Part shown: positions 6,301 through 57,554 of the stretch, one piece after another
How the letters are laid out: each line of letters opens with the position of its first letter
How positions within the stretch are numbered: position 1 is the first letter of the stretch
NCBI GenBank assembly: GCA_003660975.1
Contig: QMVG01000002.1
Coordinates: 7,996 to 71,995 of the forward strand
From: Candidatus Micrarchaeota archaeon
Lineage (GTDB): Archaea; B1Sed10-29; B47-G15
DNA length: 64,000 bases
Direction of reading: 5' to 3'
Translations under genes and position numbers: made by a program
The notes under the pieces: generated by a model
Seen by the model: only the letters and a program-made list of their open reading frames with translations
Databases searched by the model: none
Told to the model about the DNA's origin: nothing

Positions 6301-7821
6301 ATGGAGCTACTTGAAGAGAGAAAGAATGCGAGAATATATCGTTCATCTCCTTGGCACATCTATGAGCTAAAGTTTCCTGACCTGAACAAAGACGAAAAGG
6401 AATTTGTCGAGCTGTTCAGCAGAGCCTTGCTGAAAAAATACTCTGCAAGGGAACTTGAAATACTTTTCATAAAGGACAAAGAAGAGGAAGCCTTTGTGAA
6501 TAGGATATATGAACTACTGTCTCAAATAGGTGACACAAGCATACAAAAGCTCAGCGATGAAAAGGAAGAGGAGATAAGACAGAAAATAAGCCGTTTTGTA
6601 AAACAAAACATCAGCAATTTAGAACATCCATATGAGCTGTCTGATCTGTTATTTCACGAAATTGTAGGTCTCAGCAGAATTGATTACCTCCTAGAAGATG
6701 ATACTCTTGAGGAGATTATGATAAATTCCCATAAAAAACCTGTTTTTGTTTATGATAAAAAATATGGTCTATGTAAAACCAACATCCTTTTTGATTCAGC
6801 AGAAGAGCTGCTCGCTTTGGTGGAACGCATTGCCTCATACGTGAATAAAGATTTGAATAAAGATAAGCCACTTCTTGATGCCAGATTGCCTGATGGCTCT
6901 AGGGTGAATGCCACGATTGCACCTGCATCTCCTATGGGAGCCACACTTACTATCAGGAAGTTTGGGAGAAGTTCTCTGAGCATTACTCAGCTTATTAAAA
7001 ATAAAACCATAAGTCCTGTTGCAGCTGCTTTTCTTTGGATGGCAGTTGAGGGTCTATCTATATGTCCTCTTAATATGCTAATTGCAGGAGGCACGAGTAG
7101 CGGCAAGACAACCACCTTAAACGCCCTAACAGTTTTCATTCCAGAGAAAGAAAGAATAATAAGCATTGAAGACACACTGGAATTGAACTTACATGATAGG
7201 GAAAATTGGGTCCAGTTAGAGGCAAGATACGGTCCTTATGAAAAAGAGCTCAGCTTAAATGATTTATTAAAAAACGCCTTAAGGATGAGAGCTGACAGAA
7301 TCATAGTAGGAGAGGTTAGAGGGGAGGAAGCAGAAACTATGTTCACTGCGATGGACATAGGTCAACAAGGTATGATGGGAACCATGCACGCTAACAGCGC
7401 CAAGGAGGCTATAATAAGGCTGCAATCTCCTCCAATGGCTGTGCCTAAAGCAATGTTCTCCTTATTGGACCTCATTGTAATGCAGCATAGAATGAAGCTT
7501 CCAGGACAAGGGGTGGTTAGAAGGCTTACTGAAATTTGTGAGGTAAGTTTGATGGATGAGCAGGTGCTTCTCAATAACCTCTTCTCCTTTGACCGTCAAG
7601 ATTTCTCTTTAAAGAGAACGTCAATACCCTCACAGTCTGTTGAGAAGTGGGCCACTTTGACTGGAAAAACTAAGGCAGATATTAGCAAGGAGATAAGCAA
7701 CAGAGCCCGTCTCTTAAATAGCATGGCTGAAAAAGCTATTTTTGACTACCCTGCAATAAGGAAAGTAATTAATGCTTACCTATCAGATCCTTCAAGTGTT
7801 TCAGATTTAAATCCATCTTAA
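6301..7821 (+). CDS. Type II/IV secretion-family ATPase (FlaI/TadA/VirB11-like), orphan paralogue
   Basis: LDARLPDGSRVNATIAPASP..TIRKF, Walker A AGGTSSGKTTTLNAL, Asp box/Walker B RIIVGEVRGEEA, His box GTMHAN. The start is placed at the internal Met (MELLEERKN). The track ORF's first 44 aa overlap cca and look spurious. Confidence 0.8.
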   Translation: MELLEERKNARIYRSSPWHIYELKFPDLNKDEKEFVELFSRALLKKYSARELEILFIKDKEEEAFVNRIYELLSQIGDTSIQKLSDEKEEEIRQKISRFVKQNISNLEHPYELSDLLFHEIVGLSRIDYLLEDDTLEEIMINSHKKPVFVYDKKYGLCKTNILFDSAEELLALVERIASYVNKDLNKDKPLLDARLPDGSRVNATIAPASPMGATLTIRKFGRSSLSITQLIKNKTISPVAAAFLWMAVEGLSICPLNMLIAGGTSSGKTTTLNALTVFIPEKERIISIEDTLELNLHDRENWVQLEARYGPYEKELSLNDLLKNALRMRADRIIVGEVRGEEAETMFTAMDIGQQGMMGTMHANSAKEAIIRLQSPPMAVPKAMFSLLDLIVMQHRMKLPGQGVVRRLTEICEVSLMDEQVLLNNLFSFDRQDFSLKRTSIPSQSVEKWATLTGKTKADISKEISNRARLLNSMAEKAIFDYPAIRKVINAYLSDPSSVSDLNPS

Positions 7822-9292
7822 AATCAAAGCGCTTCTTTTCCGTTTTAGCGCTGCTCTCAATTTTTCTTTTTATTATGCCCTCTTTTATCATGAATTCCAC
7901 ACCTGATTTTATCAAATCTTCAGAGTATTTTGTCATCTCACTTATCGCTTTTATATTCACTAGGCCCTTATTTTCTTTTATTATTCTAAATAATTCGTCC
8001 AAGAAGCTGTCATTAAAGGCAGCATTATCTTTAAGCACCTCATATTCCCCGTTTATGTCTGCTTTGAGTGCTGGAATTTTCCGCTTTGCCATTTTGGTCA
8101 CTGTTTTTGCTTTCGCTTGAATAAGCAAGACAACAATAATGGCAATAGCCAAGACCAGCGCTATGTAAAATATGGAATTACTTTCGCTTATACTCATTAA
8201 AAACGAGGTTGCCTCAAAATACGCCTTGTTTTTGTCTTCCATGGGATCTACTTTCACCAACCTCATCATCGGCTCTTCATATATCACTTGTGCTGATGCA
8301 GGTACCTTGCTAAATAATGGGTTTTTTATCCACTGCTCGTTGTTGTAGTATTCAACCCACGCATAATAACTTCCTCCTTTCTCAGCCACCACCACCTTGC
8401 AAGGCTCTGACAGCTTATCACAGGCAGTATCATAATACGCAGCAGCAGATATAAAATCATTCAATTCTCCATGAAGGTCAACACTGTGAACAATTCTGGA
8501 AGCGCCTATGTTCTCCAATCTATCTAAGATCATTTTATTTAACTCATCTATAGTGGCAACTGTTTCAACATCTCCCCTCGTTCTAAAGCTTTGCTGAGGC
8601 ACATAAGCAGTCAGCTCTAAAGGAATATACAATTGTCTTTTTCTCTGTATGTTCATCGGATAATAAATAGTTCTTACTGTCATCTGAGCATTTGGCTGAA
8701 GCGCTGGGTTGCTTATGCTAACGATATGCCATGGAATCTCCTGAAAGTTTATTTTTTCAGTTTTTAGTGAAATGCCTGGAAAGACAACCCCCAGACTTGC
8801 CCCCTCGCCCTCTTTTGGCATAAAGAGCAAGTAATTCGCACCTTCTCTAAATTGGGAAGCATCAAATATAGTCATATTCTCCTTACTGCTAAAATTGAAG
8901 TTGAGCGTTATTGAGGCGCTCTCTCCCTTATTTTTTATCTTGACTACTGTTTCAATAAAAGCATTGTATATGTTTATCTCAATGCCTACATCAACATTGC
9001 TTATTTCATTGCTTATTTTTAGCCTGTAGCTATCCGCTGGGTTGAATTTGTTATCGCTTCCACCTGCCAATATCACAAATGAATTTCTTTCTATTGGCTG
9101 CCCGTTTACATATATCTGTGGCAGTAAAGTCACATAATACCTTTCAGAAATTATCGCTTTATCAGAGAGAAGCATTGGTAGCTCTATACTGTAGCTATCA
9201 GTGCTTATGAAATAGTAATTTTCGTAAGTATATGGGTTGCTTACGCAATACATAGCAGGCATTATAATCAAAAGCAACAGCAATCTTTTCAT
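7769..9292 (-). CDS. Secreted/membrane-anchored protein with cytoplasmic C-terminal winged-helix-like domain
   Basis: N-terminal signal peptide (MKRLLLLLIIMPAMYC). An extracytoplasmic region of about 370 aa rich in N, S and Y. A single TM (IFYIALVLAIAIIVVLLIQA). Then a roughly 110-aa basic C-terminal domain (ELFRIIKENKGLVNIKAISEMTKYSEDLIKSGVEFMIKEGIIKRK) that resembles a wHTH. Its 3' end overlaps the convergent ATPase gene by about 50 nt. Confidence 0.4.
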   Translation of the reverse strand: MKRLLLLLIIMPAMYCVSNPYTYENYYFISTDSYSIELPMLLSDKAIISERYYVTLLPQIYVNGQPIERNSFVILAGGSDNKFNPADSYRLKISNEISNVDVGIEINIYNAFIETVVKIKNKGESASITLNFNFSSKENMTIFDASQFREGANYLLFMPKEGEGASLGVVFPGISLKTEKINFQEIPWHIVSISNPALQPNAQMTVRTIYYPMNIQRKRQLYIPLELTAYVPQQSFRTRGDVETVATIDELNKMILDRLENIGASRIVHSVDLHGELNDFISAAAYYDTACDKLSEPCKVVVAEKGGSYYAWVEYYNNEQWIKNPLFSKVPASAQVIYEEPMMRLVKVDPMEDKNKAYFEATSFLMSISESNSIFYIALVLAIAIIVVLLIQAKAKTVTKMAKRKIPALKADINGEYEVLKDNAAFNDSFLDELFRIIKENKGLVNIKAISEMTKYSEDLIKSGVEFMIKEGIIKRKIESSAKTEKKRFDFKMDLNLKHLKDLIGKH

Positions 9293-22797: not shown

Positions 22798-24300
22798 ATG
22801 GACTATTTGAAGAAGCTTGTAGACAGTGCTAAAGACACAGGAGTAAATCAAGCATCTACCAAAAAGACACTAGTAGCAAGCTATGGAGATGTCAAAATAT
22901 ATAAGATAGAGGGAGAAGCGCTTCTTCTTTATACTGTTCCGGTTGTGAAGCCTACAGGTCCTGAGAGAGAAATCATAGACACTTTGAAAGAAGCAGCAAC
23001 ACGTTTAATAAGCATAAGTCCTGAAGAGATAAGAGACCCAAAGCTCATGAGAGACATATACACACAGAGAGTGAAGGAGATTATCGAGTCAAGCCCAGAA
23101 CTAGGCATACCAAAGACGCGATTTGACTTTTATGCTGAAATGGTCGTTAGGGAAATGATAGGATATGGTTATCTAGACCCCTTAATTCACGATGACAAGT
23201 TGGAGGAAATAATGGTTATAGGAGCGCAGAAACCTGTCTATGTCTTTCATAGGGATTATGACATGATGAAAACCAACATTGTTTTTAGCACTGACAGCGA
23301 GATATACAACTTAATTTCCAGGATTGCGATGGGAGTGGGAAGGCGAATTGACAAGCAAAACCCCATATTAGATGCCAGATTGCCTGATGGCTCTAGGGTG
23401 AATGCCACGATAAAGCCAATAAGCTTGAATGGCTCAACCATAACTATAAGGAAATTTAGAGAGGATCCGCTAACTGTAGTTGATTTGATAAATAATGGAA
23501 CCATGGACTCCTATTTAGCTGCTTTTCTTTGGCTGGCAGTTGATGGTCTTTACAGTAAGCCTGCCAACATCCTCGTTTCAGGTGGCACAGGTAGTGGTAA
23601 AACAACCACCTTAAACGTACTGGCCAGTTTTATCCCAAGAGAGGAAAGGGTGGTGACGATAGAAGACACTGCTGAGCTAAAGCTTCCAATAGAGCACATA
23701 GTGAGGTTTGAGACGCGTCCTCCAGGGCTTGAAGGCACAGGCGAAATAAGTATGGATGCCCTTGTCAAAAATGCTTTAAGGATGAGGCCTGATAGGATCA
23801 TAGTAGGCGAGATAAGGCACGCTGAGGCCTTCACGCTTTTCACAGCCATGAACACAGGACATCAGGGTTGCATGGGAACAGTGCACGCTAATGACGCTTC
23901 AGAAACGGTAATTAGGTTGACAAACCCACCAATGAGTGTTCCGAAGATTATGCTTACCGCGCTTGACTTGATAGTGGTTCAGAGCAGGATAAGAGACAGG
24001 AGAAAAGGCACAATAAGGAGAGTTACAGAACTTGCAGAGCTTACTGCTGTGTCCAATGAAGGCGACGTTCATTTACAAACGCTGTTTTCATGGGATCCTG
24101 TCTCAGATAGTATAAATCATATGAAAATCAACTCACACTATCTCAAAGAGCTATCCAGATATGCGGGTATGTCTGTTGATGACATTGAGCTTGAAATAGA
24201 GAAAAGGAAACAGGTTTTAGAAGAGCTTACATCCAAAGGGATTAGAGACCTTAAAACTGTGTCTACATATCTAAACCGTTTTGAGGTAAGTAATAAATGA
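22798..24300 (+). CDS. Type IV pilus assembly ATPase (FlaI/TadA/VirB11 family)
   Basis: LDARLPDGSRVNATIKP...TIRKF, Walker A VSGGTGSGKTTTLNVL, Walker B/Asp box RIIVGEIRHAEA, His box GTVHAN. 500 aa. Confidence 0.85.
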   Translation: MDYLKKLVDSAKDTGVNQASTKKTLVASYGDVKIYKIEGEALLLYTVPVVKPTGPEREIIDTLKEAATRLISISPEEIRDPKLMRDIYTQRVKEIIESSPELGIPKTRFDFYAEMVVREMIGYGYLDPLIHDDKLEEIMVIGAQKPVYVFHRDYDMMKTNIVFSTDSEIYNLISRIAMGVGRRIDKQNPILDARLPDGSRVNATIKPISLNGSTITIRKFREDPLTVVDLINNGTMDSYLAAFLWLAVDGLYSKPANILVSGGTGSGKTTTLNVLASFIPREERVVTIEDTAELKLPIEHIVRFETRPPGLEGTGEISMDALVKNALRMRPDRIIVGEIRHAEAFTLFTAMNTGHQGCMGTVHANDASETVIRLTNPPMSVPKIMLTALDLIVVQSRIRDRRKGTIRRVTELAELTAVSNEGDVHLQTLFSWDPVSDSINHMKINSHYLKELSRYAGMSVDDIELEIEKRKQVLEELTSKGIRDLKTVSTYLNRFEVSNK

Positions 24301-25409
24301 CAGAAATAAAGAAACTAAAAAAAATTTTGGAAGCCGAGGATAGGAAAGAGAAAGAGCAGTCGCCATACCTGAACAGACAGTTGCTTTCTAAGATAATAAA
24401 GAGGATGGAAAAAAAATATGAAAAGGAGGGACTTAGCACCCCTGATTATGCTGCAAGAGAAAAAAAAGCAGAAAAGCTTAAAGTAATCACAGGCTCTCCA
24501 AAGGAATTGCTCTTGTCAAAAAAGCCAATAGTAAGGTTTCTAATTAGCATATATATGTTATCTTCTCCAATCAGTTATTACCTTCTAACATTTCTTGAGA
24601 AAATTTTAGGCAAGAGCTTGGAAAAAGACCTTAAAGCTTCTGGCATGATGTATTCCCAGAAGCAATACCTTGCATTGACTATGTCGCTTGTGTTTATCCT
24701 GTGGGTTTCATTTTTAATCCCTCTGACAGCACTGACGCTGCTCTTTCATTTTTCTCTATTCTACCTGCTTCTTTCAGCCATTTTAATCCCTTTGCTTGCT
24801 TTTTCAATTGCATTTTTACTACCAAGCACAAGGGCCAGCAAAATAGCAAATGAGATTGACAAGGAGCTTCCATTTGCATTGAGACATATGAGCATACAAA
24901 TACGGGCTGGAGTTGGAATATACAATTCCATGGAGTCAATAGCTGTGTCTGATTATGGCTATTTGTCAAAAGGTTTCAAATTCGTTCTCAGCAATATCCA
25001 AAAAGGCATGCCAACTGAAGAAGCTTTAGAGTCGTGGGCATATATGACACGGTCAGAAGCCCTTCAAAGGGTTATAAGCCACATAGTTAGAGCTCTAAGA
25101 ACAGGCGGCAATCTCTCTGATATTATGCTAAGCATTTCAGAGGACATATCATTTGAAAGAAGAATGAAAATATCTGACTTTGCCGAGAAACTCAACCTCA
25201 TGGCTCTTTTTTTGATGATGGTGGCCATAGTAGTACCTGTTATGGTAGGCATACTGACTGCCATTGCATCAATGCCCTCTCTTAGCTCTTATGTAAATGT
25301 CTTTTCTATATTCTCACTAACTTTTCTGCAGTTGCTGTATTTTCTGATAAGCCCAAGCCTTATATTGCTCTTCCTTTACTTCATAAAGATCTCAGATCCA
25401 GGTGCTTGA
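24297..25409 (+). CDS. Pilus platform membrane protein, N-terminal T2SSF-domain half (TadB/FlaJ-like)
   Basis: Cytoplasmic K/E-rich N-terminus, TM helices, and a T2SSF-type soluble segment (LPFALRHMSIQIRAGVGIYNSMESIA). It ends at TGA 25407 to 25409, in the same frame as the next ORF. Confidence 0.65.
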   Translation: MTEIKKLKKILEAEDRKEKEQSPYLNRQLLSKIIKRMEKKYEKEGLSTPDYAAREKKAEKLKVITGSPKELLLSKKPIVRFLISIYMLSSPISYYLLTFLEKILGKSLEKDLKASGMMYSQKQYLALTMSLVFILWVSFLIPLTALTLLFHFSLFYLLLSAILIPLLAFSIAFLLPSTRASKIANEIDKELPFALRHMSIQIRAGVGIYNSMESIAVSDYGYLSKGFKFVLSNIQKGMPTEEALESWAYMTRSEALQRVISHIVRALRTGGNLSDIMLSISEDISFERRMKISDFAEKLNLMALFLMMVAIVVPVMVGILTAIASMPSLSSYVNVFSIFSLTFLQLLYFLISPSLILLFLYFIKISDPGA

Positions 25410-26264
25410 ATGAAGGCATTAGAAAAGTATCAAGAAATAGCCCATTTCGCAGGGATTTCACAGCCCTGGCTTTTGTTGGGAGGAAGTATTTCAATAGGCG
25501 CAATACTGTTTTTCCTTTTGTTGTCCTATGACCCAATACTCTCAGTGCTTGTATTACTTATCTCCTTAGATGTATCTTTCGGCCTGCCTTTTTTGCTCGC
25601 AAGTAGGAAGGTTGAGAAGATTGAAGACAGCTTGCCAGATGTATTGCAGCACATAAGCACCACACTGAAAGCAGGCTCCACAATAGAGATGGCTCTAAAG
25701 GAGGTCTCCTTAGTTGACTATGGCCCAATAAGCCAAGAGATGAAACGGATGCTGGACGAAATAAACAAAGGCAAGACATTTGAAGAGGCCTTCAACGACT
25801 TTGCTGAAAGTTCTCACTCAAAACTTGTTAAGAAGATTGCAATCATAATCTCAGCCGCAAGGCGAAGCGGTGGGGCTCTATTACAGACTTTGAGCCTCAC
25901 AGCAGAGGATATAAGAGCTGTTAACCGCTTGAGACGGGAGAGAAAAAGCAAAACACTTATGCAGTTCTTGTTTTTGATAGCAGCAAGCTCTATCGTAGCT
26001 CCTTTTATATTTGGCATAGTGCGGGCTGTTCTGTCAACACTTCTTTCAATAAGCCCTTTTACCAACACAGATACATTGCAAGCCTTTGATTTTACATTTA
26101 AGCTATTTCTGGTATTGCAAGGTACTCTTACAACTATTGGAGCTGTTATGGTGAAAGAAGGCAAATTAGAAAAAAGTGCGCTTTACATCCCATTTTCTCT
26201 CTTCTCTATTTACGTGATATACAGCCTCGTGTCTGTCCTCTTTATGTCTTTAATAGGTGTTTGA
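25410..26264 (+). CDS. Pilus platform membrane protein, C-terminal T2SSF-domain half (TadC/FlaJ-like)
   Basis: Second T2SSF-like segment (LPDVLQHISTTLKAGSTIEMALKEVS) flanked by TM helices. Its ATG immediately follows the in-frame TGA of the upstream half. Confidence 0.65.
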   Translation: MKALEKYQEIAHFAGISQPWLLLGGSISIGAILFFLLLSYDPILSVLVLLISLDVSFGLPFLLASRKVEKIEDSLPDVLQHISTTLKAGSTIEMALKEVSLVDYGPISQEMKRMLDEINKGKTFEEAFNDFAESSHSKLVKKIAIIISAARRSGGALLQTLSLTAEDIRAVNRLRRERKSKTLMQFLFLIAASSIVAPFIFGIVRAVLSTLLSISPFTNTDTLQAFDFTFKLFLVLQGTLTTIGAVMVKEGKLEKSALYIPFSLFSIYVIYSLVSVLFMSLIGV

Positions 26265-26571
26265 TATGAAAGCCCAAACTGCTATGGAATACCTAGTCCT
26301 GACAGCTGTTGTGTTGACCATTGTAACTGTTGTAAGTTATATGATACTTACGGCATCAAAAGCAAGTGGTCAGACAGCCTCAGAGATGACCTGCAGGGCA
26401 ACAGCCTCCTCATATAAGTTAGCTATAATGGCAGACCCAAATGCCTGCGATGCAGAATGCGAAAAGGCCTGCGAAAAAGCCTGCGTGGACAGCAATGGCT
26501 ATGATGTAATTGGAGGCGAAAAAGGTTGCGGAACAGGTTGTCAGGCTTGCAAAAGCGGGACATTGCATTAA
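26257..26571 (+). CDS. Class III signal peptide (type IV pilin-like) protein, Cys-rich
   Basis: MKAQTAMEYLVLTAVVLTIVTVV is a K-A|Q prepilin-type N-terminus followed by a hydrophobic helix. The C-terminal domain carries 10 Cys, including CDAECEKACEKAC. The true start is probably the Met of MKAQ. Confidence 0.55.
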   Translation: MFDMKAQTAMEYLVLTAVVLTIVTVVSYMILTASKASGQTASEMTCRATASSYKLAIMADPNACDAECEKACEKACVDSNGYDVIGGEKGCGTGCQACKSGTLH

Positions 26572-26594: not shown

Positions 26595-26921
26595 ATGTTC
26601 TCTGGTGTTATCATGAAGGCACAGGGCTCACTTGAATACCTAATCATATTAGCAGCTGTATTGGCAATAGGAGCTATAGTGGTTTTGTTTGTGACAGATG
26701 CTTTTAGCCAGACAAAAACAGCTGCGAGCGTTGAGAATTGTAGAAATGCACTTACAAAAGTATATCAAGAATACAAACTTCACGGGTCTGTTGCCAAAGA
26801 CATTTCGGACAGCTGCTATGAAATCTGCAAGGATTTCGTTTATGCATCCTCACCAGCAACAGACTTTTGTGATGGGGAAGGTTTGACAGAAGACATAATA
26901 AACCACATAAGCCAATCCTAA
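26595..26921 (+). CDS. Class III signal peptide (pilin-like) protein
   Basis: MKAQGSLEYLIILAAVLAIGAIVVL prepilin-like N-terminus with 4 Cys in the globular part. The true start is probably the Met of MKAQ. Confidence 0.55.
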   Translation: MFSGVIMKAQGSLEYLIILAAVLAIGAIVVLFVTDAFSQTKTAASVENCRNALTKVYQEYKLHGSVAKDISDSCYEICKDFVYASSPATDFCDGEGLTEDIINHISQS

Positions 26922-26953: not shown

Positions 26954-27904
26954 ATGTATGCTTTTCTAGCATTTGCACTGTTGCTTACAGCAAGCTATTT
27001 TGACTTAAAGGATAGGAGAATACCTCCCACGCTAAGCTACTCATTCATCTTGATTGGACTCACAGCCCACCTATTAGAAGGAATATCTCTCCAATATATC
27101 TATATCGTGTTTGCCTCTTTTTTCTTTGCCTACGCACTTTATAAGTTTGGGGTGTGGGCAGGGGGAGACTTCAAACTATTCGTGGCGCTTTCCCTCCTAC
27201 TGCCCACATACAAATCTATTGACTTCTTTTCATTTTATGTGCTGTTTTTTGCTGTGCTTGCCGTTCTGCCTTTTCTACTTGTATTTTTTGCGTACAAGCT
27301 TTTTCTTTCGAAAGAGTTCAGGAGAGGGGCGAAGGCAAAAGCTAAATCATGGCTAAAGCGTTCACTTTTTATCGCTATAATCGCTACAGCCTCTTATGAA
27401 CTTTCATCATTTTTCACATTGCCTCCTGAGTTATCTGTGCTCTTCTTTTTCATGCTTTTCTTGCTTAAGCAAAGTGGCTCTTTCATTGCTGTAGTTTTTC
27501 TATTAAACAGCATAATCAGAAATCCATCATATGTCTTAACAGTCATTTACTTGTTTTTAGTTTCCCTGCTTATTTCCATAGCTATCTACTCATTTAAGGT
27601 TTTGAGAAAAACTGTTCTCAGAAAAAAGCTGCCCATAGCCAAGATAAAGGAAGGCATGATACCTGCCCAGCACTTAATAAAGAAGGGAAAGAGGTATTAT
27701 CTAAAAGAAGCAGAATGGCGCGACTTATTCCATAAAGATAATATCGTGATAGACTCTATGAAGGCCAGAGGGCTGAACAGGGATGAAATCCTATTGATTA
27801 AGAAATCAGGCATAAAAGAAATAGAAATAAAGAAGTCACTTCCTTTTGTCCCCTTCATGTGCCTGGGATTTGTTCTAGCTCTCCTTAGTTTATTTATATT
27901 TTGA
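26954..27904 (+). CDS. Prepilin/preflagellin peptidase (A24 family, PibD/FlaK-like)
   Basis: Polytopic membrane protein with the two catalytic Asp contexts (YFDLKDRRIP and VWAGGDFKLF). It sits inside the pilin array. Confidence 0.6.
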   Translation: MYAFLAFALLLTASYFDLKDRRIPPTLSYSFILIGLTAHLLEGISLQYIYIVFASFFFAYALYKFGVWAGGDFKLFVALSLLLPTYKSIDFFSFYVLFFAVLAVLPFLLVFFAYKLFLSKEFRRGAKAKAKSWLKRSLFIAIIATASYELSSFFTLPPELSVLFFFMLFLLKQSGSFIAVVFLLNSIIRNPSYVLTVIYLFLVSLLISIAIYSFKVLRKTVLRKKLPIAKIKEGMIPAQHLIKKGKRYYLKEAEWRDLFHKDNIVIDSMKARGLNRDEILLIKKSGIKEIEIKKSLPFVPFMCLGFVLALLSLFIF

Positions 27905-28259: not shown

Positions 28260-28640
28260 ATGAAAGCTCAGCTGACATTGGAATACCTTATTATTTTTGT
28301 AATCTTACTGCTACTGTTTTCAAATGTTTCTATGGATTTAATGGGTTCTTCAATGAGCTCTGCCCTGCAGATACAGAAGCAACAGATAATGAAAGCAGCC
28401 AATCTCTCTTTAGAGTCAGCTGCATCCAAGCTTCAGTATCAGGGAGAAGGGGCCAGGATATTAGTAAAGATAAGAGCAGCACCTGATTGCAATTACATAT
28501 TTGAGGAGAAAAGAGCATACGCTGAATGCAGGAGCGGAACTTATGATATAGGTCCAAATCCTTTACCAGCTGATTTGGTGTACTCTGAAAAGACAATAAA
28601 GGAGAATGAGTTGGATGTTGTTGAAATTAGTAAAGAGTAA
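28260..28640 (+). CDS. Class III signal peptide (pilin-like) protein
   Basis: MKAQLTLEYLIIFVILLLLF N-terminus, 126 aa. Confidence 0.55.
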   Translation: MKAQLTLEYLIIFVILLLLFSNVSMDLMGSSMSSALQIQKQQIMKAANLSLESAASKLQYQGEGARILVKIRAAPDCNYIFEEKRAYAECRSGTYDIGPNPLPADLVYSEKTIKENELDVVEISKE

Positions 28641-28962
28641 GGGACAGCTTTCAATTGAACTTTTGTTTATCATTTCAATACTGATTCTCCTATGCTCATC
28701 CATAACACTGGACGCATTGGCCACTTCATCACGAATGTTTGACATATCACACGTTAAAGACGCTGTAAATACTTATCTTTACAAAAAAGGCATTGAAGAC
28801 AAAGCATGCCTTTCAATGAGGCTTTCTGCGTTGTCAGTAAAGCAAAATACAGTTTACGTCAGGATAGATGGAGACAAAAGCTGCAAGCCTAGCTCTGATG
28901 AACTGCTTTATTTAATAAAAAAAGAAAACCCTTCTTTTGCGCTTTCCGTGGAGGTGATTTAA
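28606..28962 (+). CDS. Class III signal peptide (pilin-like) protein
   Basis: KSKGQLSIELLFIISILILL prepilin-like segment near the N-terminus. 118 aa. The start is uncertain. Confidence 0.45.
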   Translation: MSWMLLKLVKSKGQLSIELLFIISILILLCSSITLDALATSSRMFDISHVKDAVNTYLYKKGIEDKACLSMRLSALSVKQNTVYVRIDGDKSCKPSSDELLYLIKKENPSFALSVEVI

Positions 28963-29499
28963 TTGGAATGGACTAAAACTAATGTTATTATACTGCTTCA
29001 GTCAGCAGTCCTATTCGCTGTCATTCTCGCAGTAGTTGCGAGTTTTTTGTCAGAACCATTTTTACTGCTTCTGGACATGGTTAGCTTGATTATGCTTGGT
29101 TATGGCCTTTGCTTAGTATATAAAAATTGGAGAAAGGAGTTCAAAACATATGCATTGCTTTTCAGTGTTCTCTTTTTTATAACAGTAGCTTTCCCAATTT
29201 TGATAATATCCAAATTTATAAACAGTTTCAATACCTCTTTATTACTTCTCTTTTTGCTGCTTTTCTATTTTATCTTGAAGGCTTATTTGACACCAAAGCA
29301 GCTGGAAGGTATAGTAGTAATGGCAGACAAAGAGAGAGCAGTGGTGCATATAGATTACAATATCCTTTTGTCATTACCTGCAGGGGATTATGTTGTCAGA
29401 AATAATGGAGCCAAGAAGGGACATAAAGTTCTGCTGTCTTATAAAAAGAGCATATTCAGGACTGTAAAGCCAGAAGCCGTGATCAAGGTGATAAAATGA
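28963..29499 (+). CDS. Membrane protein (about 4 TM) with small C-terminal soluble domain, embedded in the pilin array
   Basis: Four hydrophobic helices, then a roughly 70-aa beta-rich-looking tail (GIVVMADKERAVVHIDYNILLSLPAGDYVVRNNGAKKGHKVLLSYKK). No family recognised. Confidence 0.4.
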   Translation: MEWTKTNVIILLQSAVLFAVILAVVASFLSEPFLLLLDMVSLIMLGYGLCLVYKNWRKEFKTYALLFSVLFFITVAFPILIISKFINSFNTSLLLLFLLLFYFILKAYLTPKQLEGIVVMADKERAVVHIDYNILLSLPAGDYVVRNNGAKKGHKVLLSYKKSIFRTVKPEAVIKVIK

Positions 29500-29870
29500 A
29501 GAAGGGCATGTTTAGCATAGATTTTATTATGGCCCTTGTGATAGTTAGCTTTGTAGTTTTCTTTATACAAGAGCATACATATAGGAGTTTGAGACACAGC
29601 GAAGAGTTTGGAAGATTGGAGCAGCTCTCAAGCATGACATCTTCTGTTGCATCTCAGCTAAATGCTTTTTATGCCCTATCACCAGAAAAGGGAGACTTCT
29701 TTAATTTATTACCCCCTAAAATAAGCAGTTTCAGCAGAACCCAGGATTGCACTGTCTTGAAATACGCTTCGTCTCTGACACTTAGTTGTGGAGATTCTTC
29801 CCTCTCCTTTCCACTTTGTTTTGACGATGCATCTTACGAGGTTGGTGAAAAGGCGGTTGAGAAGGTATGA
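29496..29870 (+). CDS. Pilin-like protein
   Basis: MKKGMFSIDFIMALVIVSFVVFFI N-terminus, which is K-G followed by a hydrophobic helix. 124 aa. Confidence 0.45.
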   Translation: MKKGMFSIDFIMALVIVSFVVFFIQEHTYRSLRHSEEFGRLEQLSSMTSSVASQLNAFYALSPEKGDFFNLLPPKISSFSRTQDCTVLKYASSLTLSCGDSSLSFPLCFDDASYEVGEKAVEKV

Positions 29871-30268
29871 AAGCACAGATATTTTCATTGGACGCCATGC
29901 TTGCCATTGTAGCTCTTACAGTTATCGTGGGCTATTTTTCGTGGTCCCTTGAGAATACATTACATAGCGCAGATATTTCGGAGTATGAGAGCTTGCAGCG
30001 TATGGCAGATGATTGGGCACAGCTGGCTGTTAAAAGAATCTTGGCGCAAAGAGACGAACCAAATAAGGTAGACAGCTCAAGGCTTAGTGATCTTGCAGCG
30101 CAGATGTCAGAACTGCTTGTTTCACCATATGACTTTGAGCTGCATCTTGGCAATTCTAAGCTGGGTGGGGACTGCAGTTCAAAGCAAAATGTGGTTTCTG
30201 TCAGGCGATTGGTTTATGACAAGGACTCAGCAGAAGGGAAAGTATTTGAATTGAGGTTATGTGTATGA
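29867..30268 (+). CDS. Class III signal peptide (pilin-like) protein
   Basis: MKAQIFSLDAMLAIVALTVIVGYF N-terminus. 133 aa. Confidence 0.55.
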   Translation: MKAQIFSLDAMLAIVALTVIVGYFSWSLENTLHSADISEYESLQRMADDWAQLAVKRILAQRDEPNKVDSSRLSDLAAQMSELLVSPYDFELHLGNSKLGGDCSSKQNVVSVRRLVYDKDSAEGKVFELRLCV

Positions 30269-50533: not shown

Positions 50534-51190
50534 TTATTCATCATCTACTATGCCACTGCCAACTATTCTAAAAAGAGCTTCCTCACCCTCTTTTTTAAAG
50601 AGGTGCTTCCTGAGTATTGCCTTCCTTCTCCCATCTCCACCATTTTTCTGCAGTTCTACTATTACCTTTGAGTCATACTTTACTGTATCTCCCCCAACAG
50701 GCTCAACTCTGCCAGAGTCAAAGTTTTCATATACTTGGTTAGTGACAAGAACAGGCACATCATAGGTTCTTGCATATTGCAGAAGGCTGTTCATCTGCTT
50801 ACCCATAAGCCTATTTATCTCTTTAACATTACTCTCATCTCTCTCCAACCTATACAAAGATGAGATGCTGTCTACAATTACAAAATCTGCTCTTTTGAGA
50901 TTTTTTATCACTTTATCCTGCTCTTCAAAGCTTGTAATTTCATATAAAATGGTGTTTTTAAGCACCTCTTCATAGCTCTTAGCAGCTATCTGCCTCAGTC
51001 TTTTCTCATTGAAGCTTCCTTCAGTGTCTATGAAAATGGCTTTTTTTCCTATTTTTACAGCATTGACGAGAGCTTGGAGGGCAATATTGGTTTTTCCACT
51101 GCCTGCAGGTCCATATATCTGGGTAAGCATCTTTTTTGCTATGCCTCCTCCAAGGAGTTGGTCCAATGCTCTGCAACCAATAGGAACCAT
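50534..51190 (-). CDS. radB: DNA repair/recombination protein RadB (RecA-family paralogue)
   Basis: MVPIGCRALDQLLGGGI...TQIYGPAGSGKTNIALQ is a RadA/RadB-type Walker A. Its short length (218 aa) and lack of an N-terminal HhH domain point to RadB. Confidence 0.75.
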   Translation of the reverse strand: MVPIGCRALDQLLGGGIAKKMLTQIYGPAGSGKTNIALQALVNAVKIGKKAIFIDTEGSFNEKRLRQIAAKSYEEVLKNTILYEITSFEEQDKVIKNLKRADFVIVDSISSLYRLERDESNVKEINRLMGKQMNSLLQYARTYDVPVLVTNQVYENFDSGRVEPVGGDTVKYDSKVIVELQKNGGDGRRKAILRKHLFKKEGEEALFRIVGSGIVDDE

Positions 51191-53618: not shown

Positions 53619-54242
53619 CTAGAGTAAAGACCTTACCAGCTCTACTGTGCCTCCAAAGCCCAGCCAGAAATTGAACAGCAACATTGTGATAAAGACAACA
53701 GCCCAGACCTTGAAGCTCCATGCAGCTACTTTTGAGCCGTCAAGTGGAGGTATTGGCAGGAGGTTGAAGAGGCCTAAAAAGATATTTATGGTAAATCCCC
53801 AAGAGGCAAGTGTTTTAATGAAAGCGATCTGGGGAAGAAGGACATAAAGAAACACAAAAAGTATGGACAGCACAAAATTGGAAAAAGGCCCTGCTAAGCT
53901 TATAATGCCATCTTCTCTTCGCGTTAGATTTGCCTTGTAAATGTAAACAGCACCAGGCGCTGCGAATATAAACCTACCTCCTGTTATAACTGCCATCATA
54001 AGCGCAAAAACAAGCCCCATGGTCCATGCCTTGTAAAACGCATGACAGCCAAAATGGATAGCCACGAACCTATGAGATAACTCGTGGACAACAAAGCCAA
54101 GGCCAACTGCAAGAAATATTATTGGAATAAGCTGATAATTGCCAAAGTTTATGGCAAAAAGACTGAATGCTAATGAAATGGTGAAAAAAGACACAAACAA
54201 GTCAAAAATCTCTCCTCTGTAAAACAGCCCCATGGGAATCAA
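53619..54242 (-). CDS. Membrane metalloprotease, M50/site-2 protease-like
   Basis: Polytopic membrane protein with HELSH (HExxH) inside a TM helix (VVHELSHRFVAIHFG) and a later LDG motif. Confidence 0.55.
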   Translation of the reverse strand: MIPMGLFYRGEIFDLFVSFFTISLAFSLFAINFGNYQLIPIIFLAVGLGFVVHELSHRFVAIHFGCHAFYKAWTMGLVFALMMAVITGGRFIFAAPGAVYIYKANLTRREDGIISLAGPFSNFVLSILFVFLYVLLPQIAFIKTLASWGFTINIFLGLFNLLPIPPLDGSKVAAWSFKVWAVVFITMLLFNFWLGFGGTVELVRSLL

Positions 54243-55074: not shown

Positions 55075-55134
55075 CTCTTTTTAACCTTTTCTTGTTGGGA
55101 AACAGTTTTAAGCCCTGTTTTTTCAAAGACAGTT

Positions 55135-55314
55135 ATGGACAATAGGGCCCAAATTTCTATAGAGATGCTCCTCGTGGCAGGGGCTTTGTTCGCCGTGGCA
55201 GTTCTTGTTGTCAGCAGCCTGACGCAGAGTTCAAAAGAAGCAAGTGATAAGATGAGCGCCAAGGTAAGCGAGGTTTTGGAGAAAATTGACAAGATGACAG
55301 AAGGTGCTTCCTAA
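55135..55314 (+). CDS. Minor pilin-like protein (59 aa, class III signal peptide)
   Basis: Not in the ORF track. Sequence MDNRAQISIEMLLVAGALFAVAVLVVSSL..., stop TAA overlapping the next ATG (TAATG). Confidence 0.5.
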   Translation: MDNRAQISIEMLLVAGALFAVAVLVVSSLTQSSKEASDKMSAKVSEVLEKIDKMTEGAS

Positions 55315-55481
55315 TGGACGATAAAGCGCAGATTAGCCTTGAAATGCTCTTGTTGGCAGCTGCGTTGATAGCTGTGGCTGTCTTGTTTCTGAGCGGTGTT
55401 AGGACTTCTTCAAAGTCATTCCAATCAAAGATGACTGCCAACAGCAAGCAGGCCCTGTCAAAATTGGGGCAAATCAAATGA
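55314..55481 (+). CDS. Minor pilin-like protein (55 aa, class III signal peptide)
   Basis: Not in the ORF track. Sequence MDDKAQISLEMLLLAAALIAVAVLFLSG... It is a tandem paralogue of the upstream gene. Its stop overlaps the next ATG (ATGA). Confidence 0.5.
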   Translation: MDDKAQISLEMLLLAAALIAVAVLFLSGVRTSSKSFQSKMTANSKQALSKLGQIK

Positions 55482-55876
55482 GGGGTCAGCTGAGCCTTGA
55501 AATGTTATTGCTGATGTCTGCAATGATGGGAGCGTTAGCAGTTATCCTGCCTTTATATAACTCACTATTTTCTGCTTCCAACACCGTTCTTGAAAAACAA
55601 GGGGCTCTGGAAATGGCAAGGAGCTTTAAACATTTATGCTCAATGCTTGATGTTATGGGGAAGGAGTCCTCGGCTAACTTTCTTTTTAATTCTCCATGCG
55701 ATTATGAGATTAGGAAAAAAGAGAATTCAGCAGAAATCAGCTTTGGAGAAGGAAGTATCAGCTTTGAGCTGGAGGAAAACTGTGAGCTGCCAACCATGGT
55801 TGGAAGGGGCAAGCACAATTTTTTTGTTAAGAAAGAGGGGAGCAAGGTTATTGTTTATGACAGACAAGCAGGTTAA
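55478..55876 (+). CDS. Class III signal peptide (pilin-like) protein
   Basis: MRGQLSLEMLLLMSAMMGALAVILPLY N-terminus. 132 aa. Confidence 0.55.
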   Translation: MRGQLSLEMLLLMSAMMGALAVILPLYNSLFSASNTVLEKQGALEMARSFKHLCSMLDVMGKESSANFLFNSPCDYEIRKKENSAEISFGEGSISFELEENCELPTMVGRGKHNFFVKKEGSKVIVYDRQAG

Positions 55877-56153
55877 AGCTCCCATCAATCTTTTTTCTTG
55901 AGAAGCTGATGCCTGTCTCGCAGTCCTCATCAAATGCCACAGAGACACCAACATGATTCATCAGCTTTTTTACGCAGCTTTTGCTTAACTCAGCTTTGAG
56001 GTTGCAGACCTCTATCGCATCTTGCGTCATTTGGAACAAGATTTCATTGTTTAGGTCAGGGAGTGGCTGCCTTGACATAATCATAACAGACAATATGACC
56101 ATAACTAAGAAAAATGCCAGCAAAGCGTCTGTTGTGAACAGAAAAGCTTTCAT
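55848..56153 (-). CDS. Pilin-like protein
   Basis: MKAFLFTTDALLAFFLVMVILSVMIM N-terminus. Start placed at the internal Met. The track ORF begins 30 nt upstream at 56183. Confidence 0.4.
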   Translation of the reverse strand: MKAFLFTTDALLAFFLVMVILSVMIMSRQPLPDLNNEILFQMTQDAIEVCNLKAELSKSCVKKLMNHVGVSVAFDEDCETGISFSRKKIDGSFNLLVCHKQ

Positions 56154-56596
56154 TCGCATTTGCCCCACAGCTCCACTACACATTCTTTATTTCCACATAG
56201 CGCGAACCTTCTTAGCGCCAGCCCCTCCTTTTTTCCAGCTGAGAAAAGCTCACGCCCATTTATCTCATAAATAAACAGACCCCAATGCCTCGGCAGTGCC
56301 AGTTCCCTGCCCAAATCGTCATGTTTTTTAAGCATTTCAATGCTTTTTTTGGATAACTGGTGGTGTTTTACGTTATTGGCCATTTTTACAGCAAGACCTA
56401 TGCCATTGTCCTCAGATGATGTGGAGATTAGCAGCTCTGAGGCATCTATCAGCGCCCTCTGGCTTTCGAAACAATTATATGATTGTTTTATAGATGCATA
56501 TCTTTGCGTAATGAATATTTGGAATAGAGAAATGGACAGGATTAAGACAAAGAAAGCAATTAACACATCACTTAGGAATATCTGGGCCTTTCGCAT
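56150..56596 (-). CDS. Class III signal peptide (pilin-like) protein
   Basis: MRKAQIFLSDVLIAFFVLILSISLF N-terminus. 148 aa. Confidence 0.55.
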   Translation of the reverse strand: MRKAQIFLSDVLIAFFVLILSISLFQIFITQRYASIKQSYNCFESQRALIDASELLISTSSEDNGIGLAVKMANNVKHHQLSKKSIEMLKKHDDLGRELALPRHWGLFIYEINGRELFSAGKKEGLALRRFALCGNKECVVELWGKCE

Positions 56597-56865
56597 CCTA
56601 ACACCTTTTTTGATAGCATGTCTTTCCCCAACTTTAGATATATCTTATCACCTTGCTTGCCAGCGTAGGCAAAATGAAAATCGCTGTCAAATAAGAGCCT
56701 ATTGCAGGCAGAGGCGTAGTAGCTCAACTCTGCCTCTTTTTTAAGCTTTGACAGGCCTGAAGCCAGCATAGTGTTGCTTTTCTCAGCTGTGAATATTATC
56801 ATTGAGATAACGCTCGCTATTAATGCCACAGAAATTATAAACTCAAGGCTAAGCTGCCCTTTCAA
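56572..56865 (-). CDS. Class III signal peptide (pilin-like) protein
   Basis: MKGQLSLEFIISVALIASVISMIIF N-terminus. 97 aa. Confidence 0.55.
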   Translation of the reverse strand: MKGQLSLEFIISVALIASVISMIIFTAEKSNTMLASGLSKLKKEAELSYYASACNRLLFDSDFHFAYAGKQGDKIYLKLGKDMLSKKVLGCERPRYS

Positions 56866-57451
56866 GCACTTCCCCTCCCCTTATGATTAGGTGAACCGTT
56901 TTACCTCCTATCTTCTTCTCAGCAACAAAGGCTGGTTCAGGCATCTTCATTTCGGATTTTAGCCTGCTGGCCACTTCATTGAGAATTCCCCTGACCTCTT
57001 TTATTGACTTTAAGTATGCAGGGCAAGCAGTGATATCCAAGAGAGGCGGACACTTTTCGCTGATTTCAACATTGTTGTTGTTAAAACCTATGAAGAGCAT
57101 GCACTGGGCATAACTCATTTTTTCGAAAGGCGGGACAAAGAAAAGGATATTAGCGCCATCAGTATACGCTATGCCTGTTTTTGCATCCAGACCAGAAGCC
57201 CACTCGTATATTTCATGACACAGCCGGACATCATCAATATACACATCACCAGTTCTCATTTCAAACGCTTCTTCAGCAATATCAAAAAAAGCGTCTTCTA
57301 TTTCATACCTAAACTCATCAAAGGCCAGCCTTTCGTTTATGTTTTCCTTTACCTGCCACATCGCCTCACTGATTCCTTCTTCCTGCTCTAAATAGAGCAG
57401 CACAAATGGGCTTATTACAATAAGCAGTGATATGCTTAGGAAGGCTCTCAT
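56849..57451 (-). CDS. Secreted or pilus-associated hypothetical protein (first gene of minus-strand pilin operon)
   Basis: N-terminal hydrophobic helix (MRAFLSISLLIVISPFVLLYL) followed by an acidic soluble domain. 200 aa. Confidence 0.4.
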   Translation of the reverse strand: MRAFLSISLLIVISPFVLLYLEQEEGISEAMWQVKENINERLAFDEFRYEIEDAFFDIAEEAFEMRTGDVYIDDVRLCHEIYEWASGLDAKTGIAYTDGANILFFVPPFEKMSYAQCMLFIGFNNNNVEISEKCPPLLDITACPAYLKSIKEVRGILNEVASRLKSEMKMPEPAFVAEKKIGGKTVHLIIRGGEVLERAA

Positions 57452-57554
57452 CTCTCTTAATCCTGTCCTGTCCTCATTTATCTGTTTTGCTACCTTTAAC
57501 AGTTAAACTAAGTTAATCGTTATTTTAAAATACCTATAACGTCCAAAAATACAC

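Follow-up and report, generated by a model that had tools for sequence, protein, structure and literature searches.

Organization of the pilin-like gene cluster

The 64,000-nucleotide stretch of DNA analyzed here (hereafter the window) comes from a DPANN archaeon labelled Candidatus Micrarchaeota at NCBI. An ORF check located seven genes in one region of the window, three on the plus strand and four on the minus strand, arranged in two converging sets. All seven begin with N-termini resembling class III (prepilin-type) signals. The genes and their associated features are listed below.

55075-55134, plus strand: 60-nt intergenic region upstream of g1, putative promoter of the plus operon (read from the sequence)
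55135-55314, plus strand: g1, short Flp/EpdE-like pilin, 59 aa (ORF; family search)
55314-55481, plus strand: g2, second short pilin, 55 aa (ORF; PF04021, E=6e-5)
55478-55876, plus strand: g3, minor pilin-like protein, 132 aa, leader MRG then QLSLE (ORF; weak PF04021)
55848-55876, no strand: g3/g4 overlap, meeting point of the two operons (sequence and gene calls)
55848-56153, minus strand: g4, pilin-like protein with the second N-terminal class, 101 aa, MKA then FLFTTDALLA (gene call)
56150-56596, minus strand: g5, pilin-like protein with the second N-terminal class, 148 aa, MRKA then QIFLSDVLIA (ORF; orthologue motif)
56572-56865, minus strand: g6, minor pilin-like protein, 97 aa, leader MKG then QLSLE (ORF; weak PF04021)
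56849-57451, minus strand: g7, first gene of the minus operon, 200 aa, MRA then FLSISLL (ORF)
57452-57554, minus strand: 103-nt A/T-rich divergent intergenic region upstream of g7, putative promoter of the minus operon (read from the sequence)

Within each operon, neighbouring genes overlap by 1 to 25 nt, and the 3' ends of g3 and g4 overlap by 29 nt, as set by their stop codons. The initial annotation had described seven pilin-like ORFs with class III signal-type N-termini, converging with a 3' overlap of about 30 nt. Both descriptions were borne out: leaders and hydrophobic stretches are present, g7 being the least canonical, and the overlap could be given its exact length. Miscalled stops at the overlap had been raised as a possible error; the ORFs, the sequence and independent gene calls indicate that the stops are correct. 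The start of g4 at MKAFLF also agrees with an independent gene call on the source contig (the longest ORF would begin at 56183). A TATA-like TTTTAAG lies about 29 nt before the ATG of g1, within the putative promoter of the plus operon.

All seven ORFs are short, several have no database family and a single-sequence search detects no homologue of g7, features that might be expected of chance reading frames or of genes with miscalled starts or stops. A strict N-terminal motif was scanned in all six frames over the whole window, with 787 kb of other DPANN loci as background. Fifteen ORFs in the window carried the motif, nine at 26-30.5 kb and six in the cluster, and the six-frame scan found none elsewhere in the window. 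Only four matches lay outside true clusters in the background. This predicts 0.012 matches per 2.3 kb where six were observed, a density about 500 times the background rate, so that the clustering is far beyond chance. Moreover, ten other, deeply divergent genomes show the same gene number, order, sizes and N-terminal motifs, and independent gene calls are in agreement. Chance or miscalled ORFs are thus extremely improbable, and the comparative data rule out chance ORFs.

Predicted N-terminal signal sequences

The predicted leaders (MDNRA, MDDKA, MRG, MKA, MRKA, MKG and MRA) are positively charged and end in Gly or Ala at position -1; those of g3, g4, g6 and g7 consist of three residues. The uncharged hydrophobic stretch of about 20 residues expected right after the predicted cleavage site passes a hydrophobicity filter in six of the seven proteins. 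In g7, this stretch comprises 19 hydrophobic residues with one Pro, and it fails the filter on the strict count only. The g7 N-terminus (MRAFLSISLL) does not pass the strict motif either and is the least canonical signal in the cluster.

Two N-terminal classes can be distinguished, with g7 (R-A before a hydrophobic stretch) apart from both. In g1, g2, g3 and g6, [KR][GA] is followed by Q.S.E, giving Gln at +1 and Glu at +5 (QxSxE), together with a weak match to PF04021 (Class_IIIsignal). Four window proteins scored 14.9, 23.2, 18.3 and 13.0 bits with this model, for a gathering cut-off of 23.7. In the other proteins the pattern differs: g5 has Gln at +1 and Asp at +6, and g4 and g7 have Phe at +1. 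The +1 Gln is thought to be important for EppA. The sub-cut-off PF04021 scores (13.0-23.2 bits), the lack of +1 Gln in g4 and g7, and the three-residue leaders of four proteins are observations that count against reading the cluster as a pilus assembled in trans.

Conservation of the cleavage motif in orthologues had been proposed as a check on these signals, and its outcome was largely favourable. The N-terminal motifs of all seven families are kept in most orthologues (8-10 loci; seven to ten other genomes), at an overall identity to the window proteins of only 11-36%. The exceptions are a minority of leaderless orthologues with M-x-S-L-E starts, found in L002 and L070 and also for g6 in L062 and L065.

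Two short pilins and five larger pilin-like proteins

The g1 precursor has the leader MDNRA and a mature N-terminus starting QISIE. Its family comprises 427 matches, nearly all of 54-62 aa, with g1 as the closest window member; in a set of 1.84 billion representatives, it accounts for 305 clusters at 50% identity. PF04021 was matched by all 28 sampled family members (E<=0.1, best 6.8e-8), and the archaeal Flp1_like family (PF16982) was matched weakly by 9 of the 28. Mean pairwise identity is 52% in the g1 family, compared with 23-27% for the other cluster genes. A profile search of the PDB with the short-pilin family gave only insignificant matches to archaellin N-termini (E about 0.3). Given the strong conservation of this family of 54-62 aa pilins and its resemblance to Flp and EpdE, g1 is likely the main filament subunit.

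The second short pilin, g2, has the leader MDDKA followed by QISLE and is 50% identical to g1. Second short-pilin copies orthologous to g2 were found in L002 and L070. Sequence comparison identifies g2 as an old tandem duplicate of g1.

The remaining proteins, g3 to g7, look like five fast-evolving minor pilins. Most g3 orthologues in related loci carry [KR][GA]Q.SLEYL; the exceptions are a Cys at -1 in L067 and the leaderless starts in L002 and L070. The g6 orthologues share G-Q-x-[SH]-[IL]-E, and four of them (L062, L065, L002 and L070) have no canonical leader. No family match was obtained for g4, g5 or g7 in Pfam or NCBIfam. The g4 and g5 proteins combine N-termini of the form K[GA]..F[ST].D...A with a C-terminal Cys pair, the motif in g4 orthologues being K[GA]..F[ST].[DE]...A. 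An AlphaFold2 model of g4, computed from an alignment with four window paralogues, shows, at low confidence (pLDDT 65), three strands and three helices, one of the helices being N-terminal; it had no Foldseek match in the PDB below E=0.1. The g5 alignment, which includes the protein encoded at 29867-30268 in locus 1 (described below), contains an invariant Arg and an invariant C-terminal Cys. A metagenome scan with alignment A5 returned two loci only, one of which duplicates L046.

Finally, g7 is the fastest-evolving member of the cluster. A single-sequence search of 5.8 billion proteins returned no homologue besides itself, and a profile search with the g7 orthologues recovered nothing beyond its own input sequences. 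Its positional orthologues begin MN.[KR]G, followed by a hydrophobic stretch. The AlphaFold2 model from the single sequence was unusable (pLDDT 35).

Conservation in related genomes

Ten other genomes, from Micrarchaeota and Iainarchaeota, contain the same cluster, again beside the genes for CDC48 and an M50 peptidase. The gene set and its housekeeping flanks (CDC48, M50; YchF, DUF7121) are thus common to 11 genomes. A gene for a RecA/KaiC-like ATPase at 50534-51190 was considered as a pilus regulator and rejected, as it looks like the housekeeping RadB of the same synteny block.

The cluster had been called a second pilin cluster. The label may undersell it: it is the copy that the lineage as a whole has conserved, and it includes the best-conserved short pilin.

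The convergent overlap

The initial annotation considered convergent, overlapping pilin operons to be unusual and suggested that they could allow antisense regulation. In such a reading, the layout would be a selected regulatory device, with antisense pairing or transcriptional interference setting the ratio of short to minor pilins. Tight convergence of some form is indeed found in all 11 genomes, with a gap never exceeding 50 nt. Moreover, the first plus-strand T-run downstream of the g3 stop falls inside g4, at about 55891-55897, so that the transcripts probably overlap.

However, the length of the junction is not conserved. At eight orthologous loci it measures +29, +33, +17, -50, -7, +8, +22 and -3 nt (positive values denoting overlap), ranging from a 50-nt gap to a 33-nt overlap, with no overlap in three of the eight. 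In the Micrarchaeota relatives L002 and L070, the operons converge between different genes. The overlap encodes C-terminal residues that are not conserved, and an Rfam search of the region gave no match. A scan for bacterial promoters and terminators, which is inapplicable to archaea, returned no more than shuffled sequence. Of the 10 convergent gene pairs in the window, 8 have overlapping 3' ends (4-53 nt); the overlap is therefore a genome-wide consequence of compaction. The layout is thus not unusual, the proposal of antisense regulation is unsupported, and we consider a selected regulatory role very improbable.

Candidate assembly genes elsewhere in the window

No pilus machinery was found within 10 kb of the cluster. 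The candidate assembly genes of the window are the following.

6301-7821, plus strand: orphan T2SSE ATPase, alternative motor (PF00437)
22798-24300, plus strand: T2SSE ATPase, putative motor acting in trans (domain search)
24297-25409 and 25410-26264, plus strand: two platform proteins with one T2SSF domain each, putatively acting in trans (domain search)
26954-27904, plus strand: A24 prepilin peptidase with an archaeal C-terminal domain, Arc_PepC (PF01478 and PF06819)

The two ATPases are the nearest T2SSE genes to the cluster, and the A24 peptidase is the only one in the window. Likewise, none of the 11 copies of the cluster has an ATPase, platform or peptidase gene within 10 kb. The earlier description of a cluster lacking its own ATPase, platform or peptidase therefore holds here and in ten related genomes.

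The genes at 22.8-27.9 kb belong to locus 1. In addition to the ATPase, the two T2SSF proteins and the peptidase, which make up one complete machinery in the window, this locus encodes ten other proteins whose N-termini are of the pilin type. Larger pilins are encoded at locus 1 itself (26257 and 26595). These could be the major subunits instead, an observation that counts against the cluster pilins being assembled in trans into a pilus.

After removal of the N-terminal 28 residues, hhalign detected a weak similarity between g3 and the locus-1 protein encoded at 28260-28640 (E=0.003), and no significant similarity between the other cluster families and locus-1 proteins. What links the cluster to locus 1 is thus motif class, size and order. 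A recent duplication of the locus-1 module was considered as the origin of the cluster and dropped because, except for this g3 match, the C-terminal domains share no significant similarity.

The presence of two ATPases and two pilin sets in the window raises the possibility of two distinct filaments, with the orphan ATPase serving the cluster while the platform pair and the peptidase are shared. The orphan and locus-1 ATPases are close paralogues, with 46% identity over 384 aa, and it has been argued that ATPase/TadC pairs can serve different sets of pilins (Makarova et al. 2016; PMC4858521). However, the orphan is flanked by genes for a CCA-adding enzyme and for an unrelated 507-aa membrane protein, it adjoins neither platform nor pilin genes, and none of the 11 clusters has an ATPase within 10 kb. 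We regard this arrangement as rather unlikely, and the locus-1 ATPase as the probable motor.

Comparison with known systems

The closest likeness is to the Epd pili of Methanococcus maripaludis (EpdA-E, EppA), and it was drawn from published descriptions. In this species, signal peptides of 5-13 aa end in Gly and are followed by Gln at +1 and Glu at +5; the major pilin MMP1685 (74 aa, 62 aa mature) is encoded at a distant locus, the pilin operon includes neither the ATPase nor the platform genes, and pilus genes are spread over at least four locales (PMC3875500). In clade 1 systems, small stand-alone major pilins are accompanied by five or more minor pilins (PMC4858521), and Epd-like systems combine short major pilins with two one-domain platform genes (PMC6668835), the latter being a hallmark of Epd/Tad-like systems (PMC6668835, PMC4858521).

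Like the Epd pilins, the cluster proteins have class III signals with Gly/Ala at -1, and QxSxE (Gln at +1, Glu at +5) is found in g1, g2, g3 and g6. Both have a very short major pilin without a globular domain, a role that g1 and g2 (59 and 55 aa) would fill here, and several minor pilins (about 130-156 aa in Epd; 97-200 aa for g3-g7). A dedicated A24 peptidase, an ATPase and two one-domain platform proteins are also shared, encoded here in the window outside the cluster, as is the scattering of pilin genes over loci away from the ATPase and platform genes (PMC3875500, PMC4858521, PMC6668835). In contrast, the cluster leaders are shorter (3-5 aa), g4, g5 and g7 have another N-terminal pattern without QxSxE (g4 and g7 also without +1 Gln), the cluster consists of two convergent operons amid housekeeping genes, and searches of Pfam and NCBIfam gave no annotated family similar to its C-terminal domains.

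In bacterial Tad/Flp systems (Flp, TadE, TadF, TadV, TadA, TadB, TadC), the major pilin is similarly small (about 50-60 residues); it consists of a hydrophobic helix with a short polar tail and likewise has Glu at +5. As here, the minor pseudopilins are encoded together and the platform genes are two in number. The proposed ancestor of Tad is an archaeal system of the Epd type (PMC6668835). Unlike in Tad, no cluster protein matches the Flp_Fap Pfam model, the 'EY' motif is absent from g1 and g2 (E5 then M6) whereas E-Y is present in locus-1 pilins, a secretin and TadZ are missing, and the organism is an archaeon. The adhesion pilins PilA1-6 of Haloferax volcanii belong to a different family, in which +5 Glu is lacking (PMC3875500), go with a different ATPase clade, and are encoded by single, scattered genes rather than by a seven-gene, two-operon cluster.

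Class III signals are also found on archaeal proteins that do not form filaments, such as the substrate-binding proteins of the bindosome (bioRxiv 10.64898/2026.04.22.720090), and g5 has a weak NCBIfam match to BasB (E=0.075). The cluster might therefore encode no extended pilus, but a short pseudopilus or membrane-anchored assembly for secretion or display, as in type II secretion or the Sulfolobus bindosome. However, the BasB match is far under its cut-off, none of the seven proteins has a substrate-binding or enzymatic domain in Pfam or NCBIfam, and one very short conserved pilin with five larger divergent ones is the major/minor pattern of Epd/Tad systems (PMC3875500, PMC4858521). We consider such an assembly improbable.

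A probable stand-alone pilin set, proposed to be assembled in trans

Altogether, we judge it probable that the cluster holds the stand-alone structural genes of an Epd/Tad-like type IV pilus (archaeal clade 1 / System 1), assembled in trans. The Epd-like, clade 1 assignment is a prediction from gene content. The seven products would enter the membrane via their N-terminal hydrophobic segment, and the A24 prepilin peptidase encoded about 27 kb away would cut the 3-5-residue leaders after the Gly or Ala at -1. The pilin of about 50 residues without a globular domain, g1, and its duplicate g2 would then form the filament body, as the major subunits. The filament may be the cluster's own or the same pilus as that of the locus-1 pilins. 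The putative minor pilins g3-g7 would be of low abundance, priming assembly and/or capping the tip. Polymerization would take place in trans, driven by the ATPase and the two TadB/TadC-like platform proteins encoded at 22.8-26.3 kb.

Pilin loci apart from their machinery are well documented in M. maripaludis and H. volcanii (PMC3875500, PMC4858521). This arrangement is thus already known, and overlapping convergent gene ends are likewise ordinary.

A broader proposal would make the cluster, instead of a spare pilin set, the lineage-wide core filament locus of Micrarchaeota and Iainarchaeota, with any of four undescribed features. The orphan ATPase could provide a second motor on a shared platform, for instance to retract a filament or to build a distinct one; the always-adjacent M50 intramembrane protease could be a dedicated enzyme for pilin processing or turnover; convergent transcription could fix the stoichiometry of major and minor pilins; or the leaderless M-x-S-L-E forms of some relatives could be subunits bypassing the prepilin peptidase. 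Even taken jointly, we give these options a low probability.

DPANN archaea depend on host-cell contact, and their surface filaments are poorly described. A filament built from the cluster's pilins would most likely serve attachment in this host-dependent archaeon. The locus is otherwise ordinary, as separate pilin genes and overlapping convergent ends are expected in such genomes. For Micrarchaeota and Iainarchaeota, the analysis names and locates a conserved six- or seven-gene pilin module and a well-conserved family of short pilins (54-62 aa). Most genes of the module are listed as hypothetical proteins; the short pilin is a sensible target for filament studies.

Gene content and layout of the cluster

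ORF calling in the window identified seven closely packed genes at 55135-57451, arranged as two convergent operons.

Genes and inferred promoters of the pilin cluster
55075-55134, plus strand: 60-nt intergenic region, inferred promoter of the plus operon
55135-55314, plus strand: g1, 59 aa
55314-55481, plus strand: g2, 55 aa
55478-55876, plus strand: g3, 132 aa, stop codon 55874-55876
55848-56153, minus strand: g4, 101 aa, last of the minus set, stop codon 55848-55850
56150-56596, minus strand: g5, 148 aa, third transcribed
56572-56865, minus strand: g6, 97 aa, second transcribed
56849-57451, minus strand: g7, 200 aa, first transcribed
57452-57554, minus strand: 103-nt intergenic region, putative promoter of the minus operon

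Gene calls made independently on public contig ENA ERZ650341 NODE_11, from which the same sequence is available, gave the identical seven genes, including the g4 start MKAFLF. Adjacent genes inside the operons overlap by 1, 4, 17, 25 and 4 nt, consistent with co-translation. The cluster is flanked on one side by RadB-like, CDC48, M50 peptidase and SIMPL genes, and on the other by genes for a coiled-coil membrane protein, DUF7121, YchF, RFC and PheRS. No ATPase, platform protein or pilus-type peptidase is encoded within 10 kb of it in the window. The observation made in the initial annotation is confirmed, in that the pilin genes are real and lack machinery of their own; the accompanying interpretation was borne out in part, and the features flagged as unusual proved ordinary.

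N-terminal signals

The seven proteins fall into three N-terminal classes. The g1, g2, g3 and g6 proteins carry [KR][GA] ahead of Q-x-S-x-E and a hydrophobic stretch of about 20 residues. This QxSxE is the pattern of Pfam PF04021, for which the four proteins score 13.0-23.2 bits, slightly below the 23.7-bit cut-off of the 27-position model. The g5 and g4 proteins start with K-A and then (Q/F)-x-F-x-x-D-x-L-x-A, and g7 with R-A and then F-L-S-I-S-L-L.

Scanning all six frames of the window with a strict motif returned 15 ORFs, nine at 26-30.5 kb and six in the cluster, with none outside these two loci. In a further 787 kb of DPANN DNA, the same motif gave only four matches outside real clusters; 0.012 matches are expected per 2.3 kb, against the six observed in the cluster.

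Conservation in related genomes

The source genome carries the NCBI label 'Candidatus Micrarchaeota archaeon' (locus tags DRN74_). Its YchF shares 61% identity with the YchF of another Micrarchaeota MAG and 48-53% with those of Iainarchaeum/Diapherotrites MAGs. Relatives of the cluster were sought around YchF and around homologues of the short pilins (g1/g2 type). The cluster is present in 10 further genomes (loci L002, L007, L010, L046 (=L061), L062, L065, L067, L069, L070 and L071, the last interrupted by a contig end), and is conserved across its lineage. All loci share a housekeeping block, with CDC48 close by and the M50 peptidase gene adjoining the short-pilin gene or a few genes off. 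T2SSE, T2SSF and A24 genes were absent within 10 kb of the cluster in all 10. Eight loci have the layout of the window, where the short pilin(s) plus g3 converge with g4, g5, g6 and g7. L002 and L070, the two loci of Micrarchaeota type, have their g5 and g4 orthologues on the short-pilin strand, and the convergence point is beside g6.

The orthologues of g1-g7 have 11-36% overall identity to the window proteins, and most retain the N-terminal motifs: [KR][AG]Q[IV]S.E in short pilins, [KR][GA]Q.SLEYL in g3, G-Q-x-[SH]-[IL]-E in g6, [KR][GAS]..F[ST].[DE] with a conserved C-terminal Cys in g5 and g4, and MN.[KR]G before a hydrophobic stretch in g7. By this comparison, which the initial annotation had named as a possible refutation, the signals are conserved and the genes real. 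A minority of orthologues is leaderless. The K/R-G-Q leader is missing from g6 in L062, L065, L002 and L070; the last two loci have, in addition, g3 and g5 orthologues that open directly with M-x-S-L-E. Overall, several g3, g5 and g6 orthologues have neither leader nor Gly/Ala-Gln and open at M-x-S/V-L-E or with the hydrophobic helix.

Leaderless g3/g5/g6 orthologues
L002: 14395-14712, 14018-14407
L070: 10344-10664, 10661-11041, 11316-11657
L062: 11501-11824
L065: 11486-11821

Either these are pilin-like proteins that, if their starts are right, would be independent of a prepilin peptidase, or unusual start codons are used.

The M50 intramembrane metalloprotease (~190-207 aa) adjoins the short pilin or lies a few genes from it in all 11 cluster-bearing genomes, usually in divergent orientation. 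In L069 this proximity is kept although CDC48 is separated from M50. It could reflect nothing more than housekeeping synteny, or else a functional connection, e.g. pilin turnover. Four Iainarchaeota loci have a gene for a small two-transmembrane protein (87-110 aa) immediately upstream of, and co-oriented with, the g7 orthologue; this gene is absent from the window, L002 and L070. The corresponding position in L065, L067 and L069 is occupied by a small gene (73-91 aa), a positional equivalent.

Neighbouring genes
M50 peptidase: window 53619-54242, minus strand; L007 9226-9819; L046 9497-10084; L062 9213-9833; L065 9323-9928; L067 9284-9892; L069 9363-9950; L070 6218-6781; L071 9080-9655
Two-transmembrane protein: L007 6085-6375; L046 6991-7299; L010 13770-14102; L062 12593-12856

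The convergent overlap

The annotated overlap of about 30 nt is 29 nt as given by the g3 and g4 stop codons, and the stop calls, which had been open to doubt, are correct. Across eight loci the g3/g4 junction measures +29, +33, +17, -50, -7, +8, +22 and -3 nt (plus, overlap; minus, gap); in L002 and L070 it sits between other genes. The residues encoded by the overlap are not conserved. With both length and encoded residues varying, nothing points to selection for the antisense regulation that had been proposed. Nor is such an overlap unusual, as had been claimed: in the window ORF list, eight of 10 convergent pairs overlap, by 53, 16, 4, 4, 8, 29, 4 and 12 nt (five pairs confirmed by independent gene calls), indicating that the genome is very compact.

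Examples of overlapping convergent pairs
17438-17938/17923-18468
32899-34080/34077-35831
48635-49420/49413-50519
60458-61717/61706-63340

Tight convergence is conserved, and the overlap itself is a by-product of genome compactness. The 3' ends of the two operons' transcripts likely overlap, since the first T-run downstream of the g3 stop, as read from the sequence, falls within g4.

Probable major and minor subunits

The g1 proteins make up a distinct family, with 427 members in a 5.8-billion protein set (E<=0.001) and 305 clusters at 50% identity in a 1.84-billion representative set. Nearly all are 54-62 aa, with the consensus ..[KR]AQISVELIIVLAAVVALVLLLVSQLQETS.EG.K.IEEKSKKIF.EID.I. PF04021 matched 28/28 sampled members and archaeal Flp1_like 9/28. 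Mean pairwise identity is 52%, about twice the 23-27% of g3-g7. Because it is small, without a globular domain, first in its operon and strongly conserved, g1 is probably the main filament subunit. It can be compared with MMP1685/EpdE, a 74-aa protein of M. maripaludis with a mature form of 62 aa (PMC3875500). The g2 protein is 50% identical to g1 and has orthologues of its own kind in L002 and L070; the g1/g2 duplication is therefore old.

The five larger, fast-evolving proteins g3-g7 match the picture expected of minor pilins, of which Makarova et al. count no fewer than five in each clade 1 locus (PMC4858521). The g4/g5 class has five members in the window, g4, g5 and the proteins at 29496, 29867 and 30265 of locus 1, the window's pilus locus. 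In their alignment K, F, D and A close to the N-terminus are invariant, as is a C-terminal Cys, and four of the five have a second Cys 15-25 residues before it. This pattern is reminiscent of bacterial type IV pilins, whose C-terminal region is disulphide-bonded.

Relation to locus 1 and proposed assembly

Locus 1 (22.0-31.0 kb) encodes a regulator of the TrmB family, a T2SSE ATPase, two platform proteins that each have a single T2SSF domain, two short pilins of 55 aa, two QxSxE proteins, three g4/g5-class proteins and a protein with a g7-like start (MNRAFVISS), together with the following.

Further features of locus 1
26257-26571 and 26595-26921, plus strand: two pilins of 104-108 aa, flanked by the platform genes and the peptidase gene
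26954-27904: A24 peptidase with archaeal C-terminal domain
28963-29499, plus strand: DUF2101 membrane protein, amid pilin genes

The Epd-like/Tad group is defined by two one-domain platform genes and short pilins (PMC6668835, PMC4858521, bioRxiv 10.64898/2026.04.22.720090). Given this definition and the content of locus 1, the cluster therefore consists of the protein classes of the second half of locus 1, without its machinery. Locus-1 QxSxE pilins, including the two of 104-108 aa, have E-Y at +5/+6 (exception, 28606-28962), as do Flp pilins, whereas the short pilins of the cluster have E-M. The two longer pilins have Cys-rich C-terminal parts, e.g. CDAECEKACEKACVD...CGTGCQAC, and the DUF2101 protein has no counterpart in the cluster.

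The cluster is not a recent duplicate of locus 1: when profiles were compared without the N-terminal 28 residues, similarity was insignificant save for g3 versus 28260-28640 (E=0.003).

The orphan T2SSE ATPase (6301-7821, plus strand) shares 46% identity with that of locus 1, and its neighbours include neither platform nor pilin genes. Its 3' end overlaps by 53 nt the convergent gene (7769-9292, minus strand) of a 507-aa protein, which has a signal peptide and a transmembrane segment at the C-terminus and matches no Pfam family.

In the assembly we propose as most likely, the products of both operons would enter the membrane, the A24 peptidase encoded at 26954-27904 would remove leaders of 3-5 residues, and the locus-1 ATPase and platform would put the subunits together in trans. 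The shaft would be formed by g1 and g2, with g3-g7 acting in priming or capping. The subunits may form a separate filament or join the pilus of the locus-1 pilins, and the orphan ATPase may take part. There are direct precedents for assembly in trans (PMC3875500): M. maripaludis has its major pilin, minor-pilin/EppA operon and ATPase/platform genes at no fewer than four places. Altogether, the cluster falls under a known type of system, that of Epd/Tad-like archaeal type IV pili.
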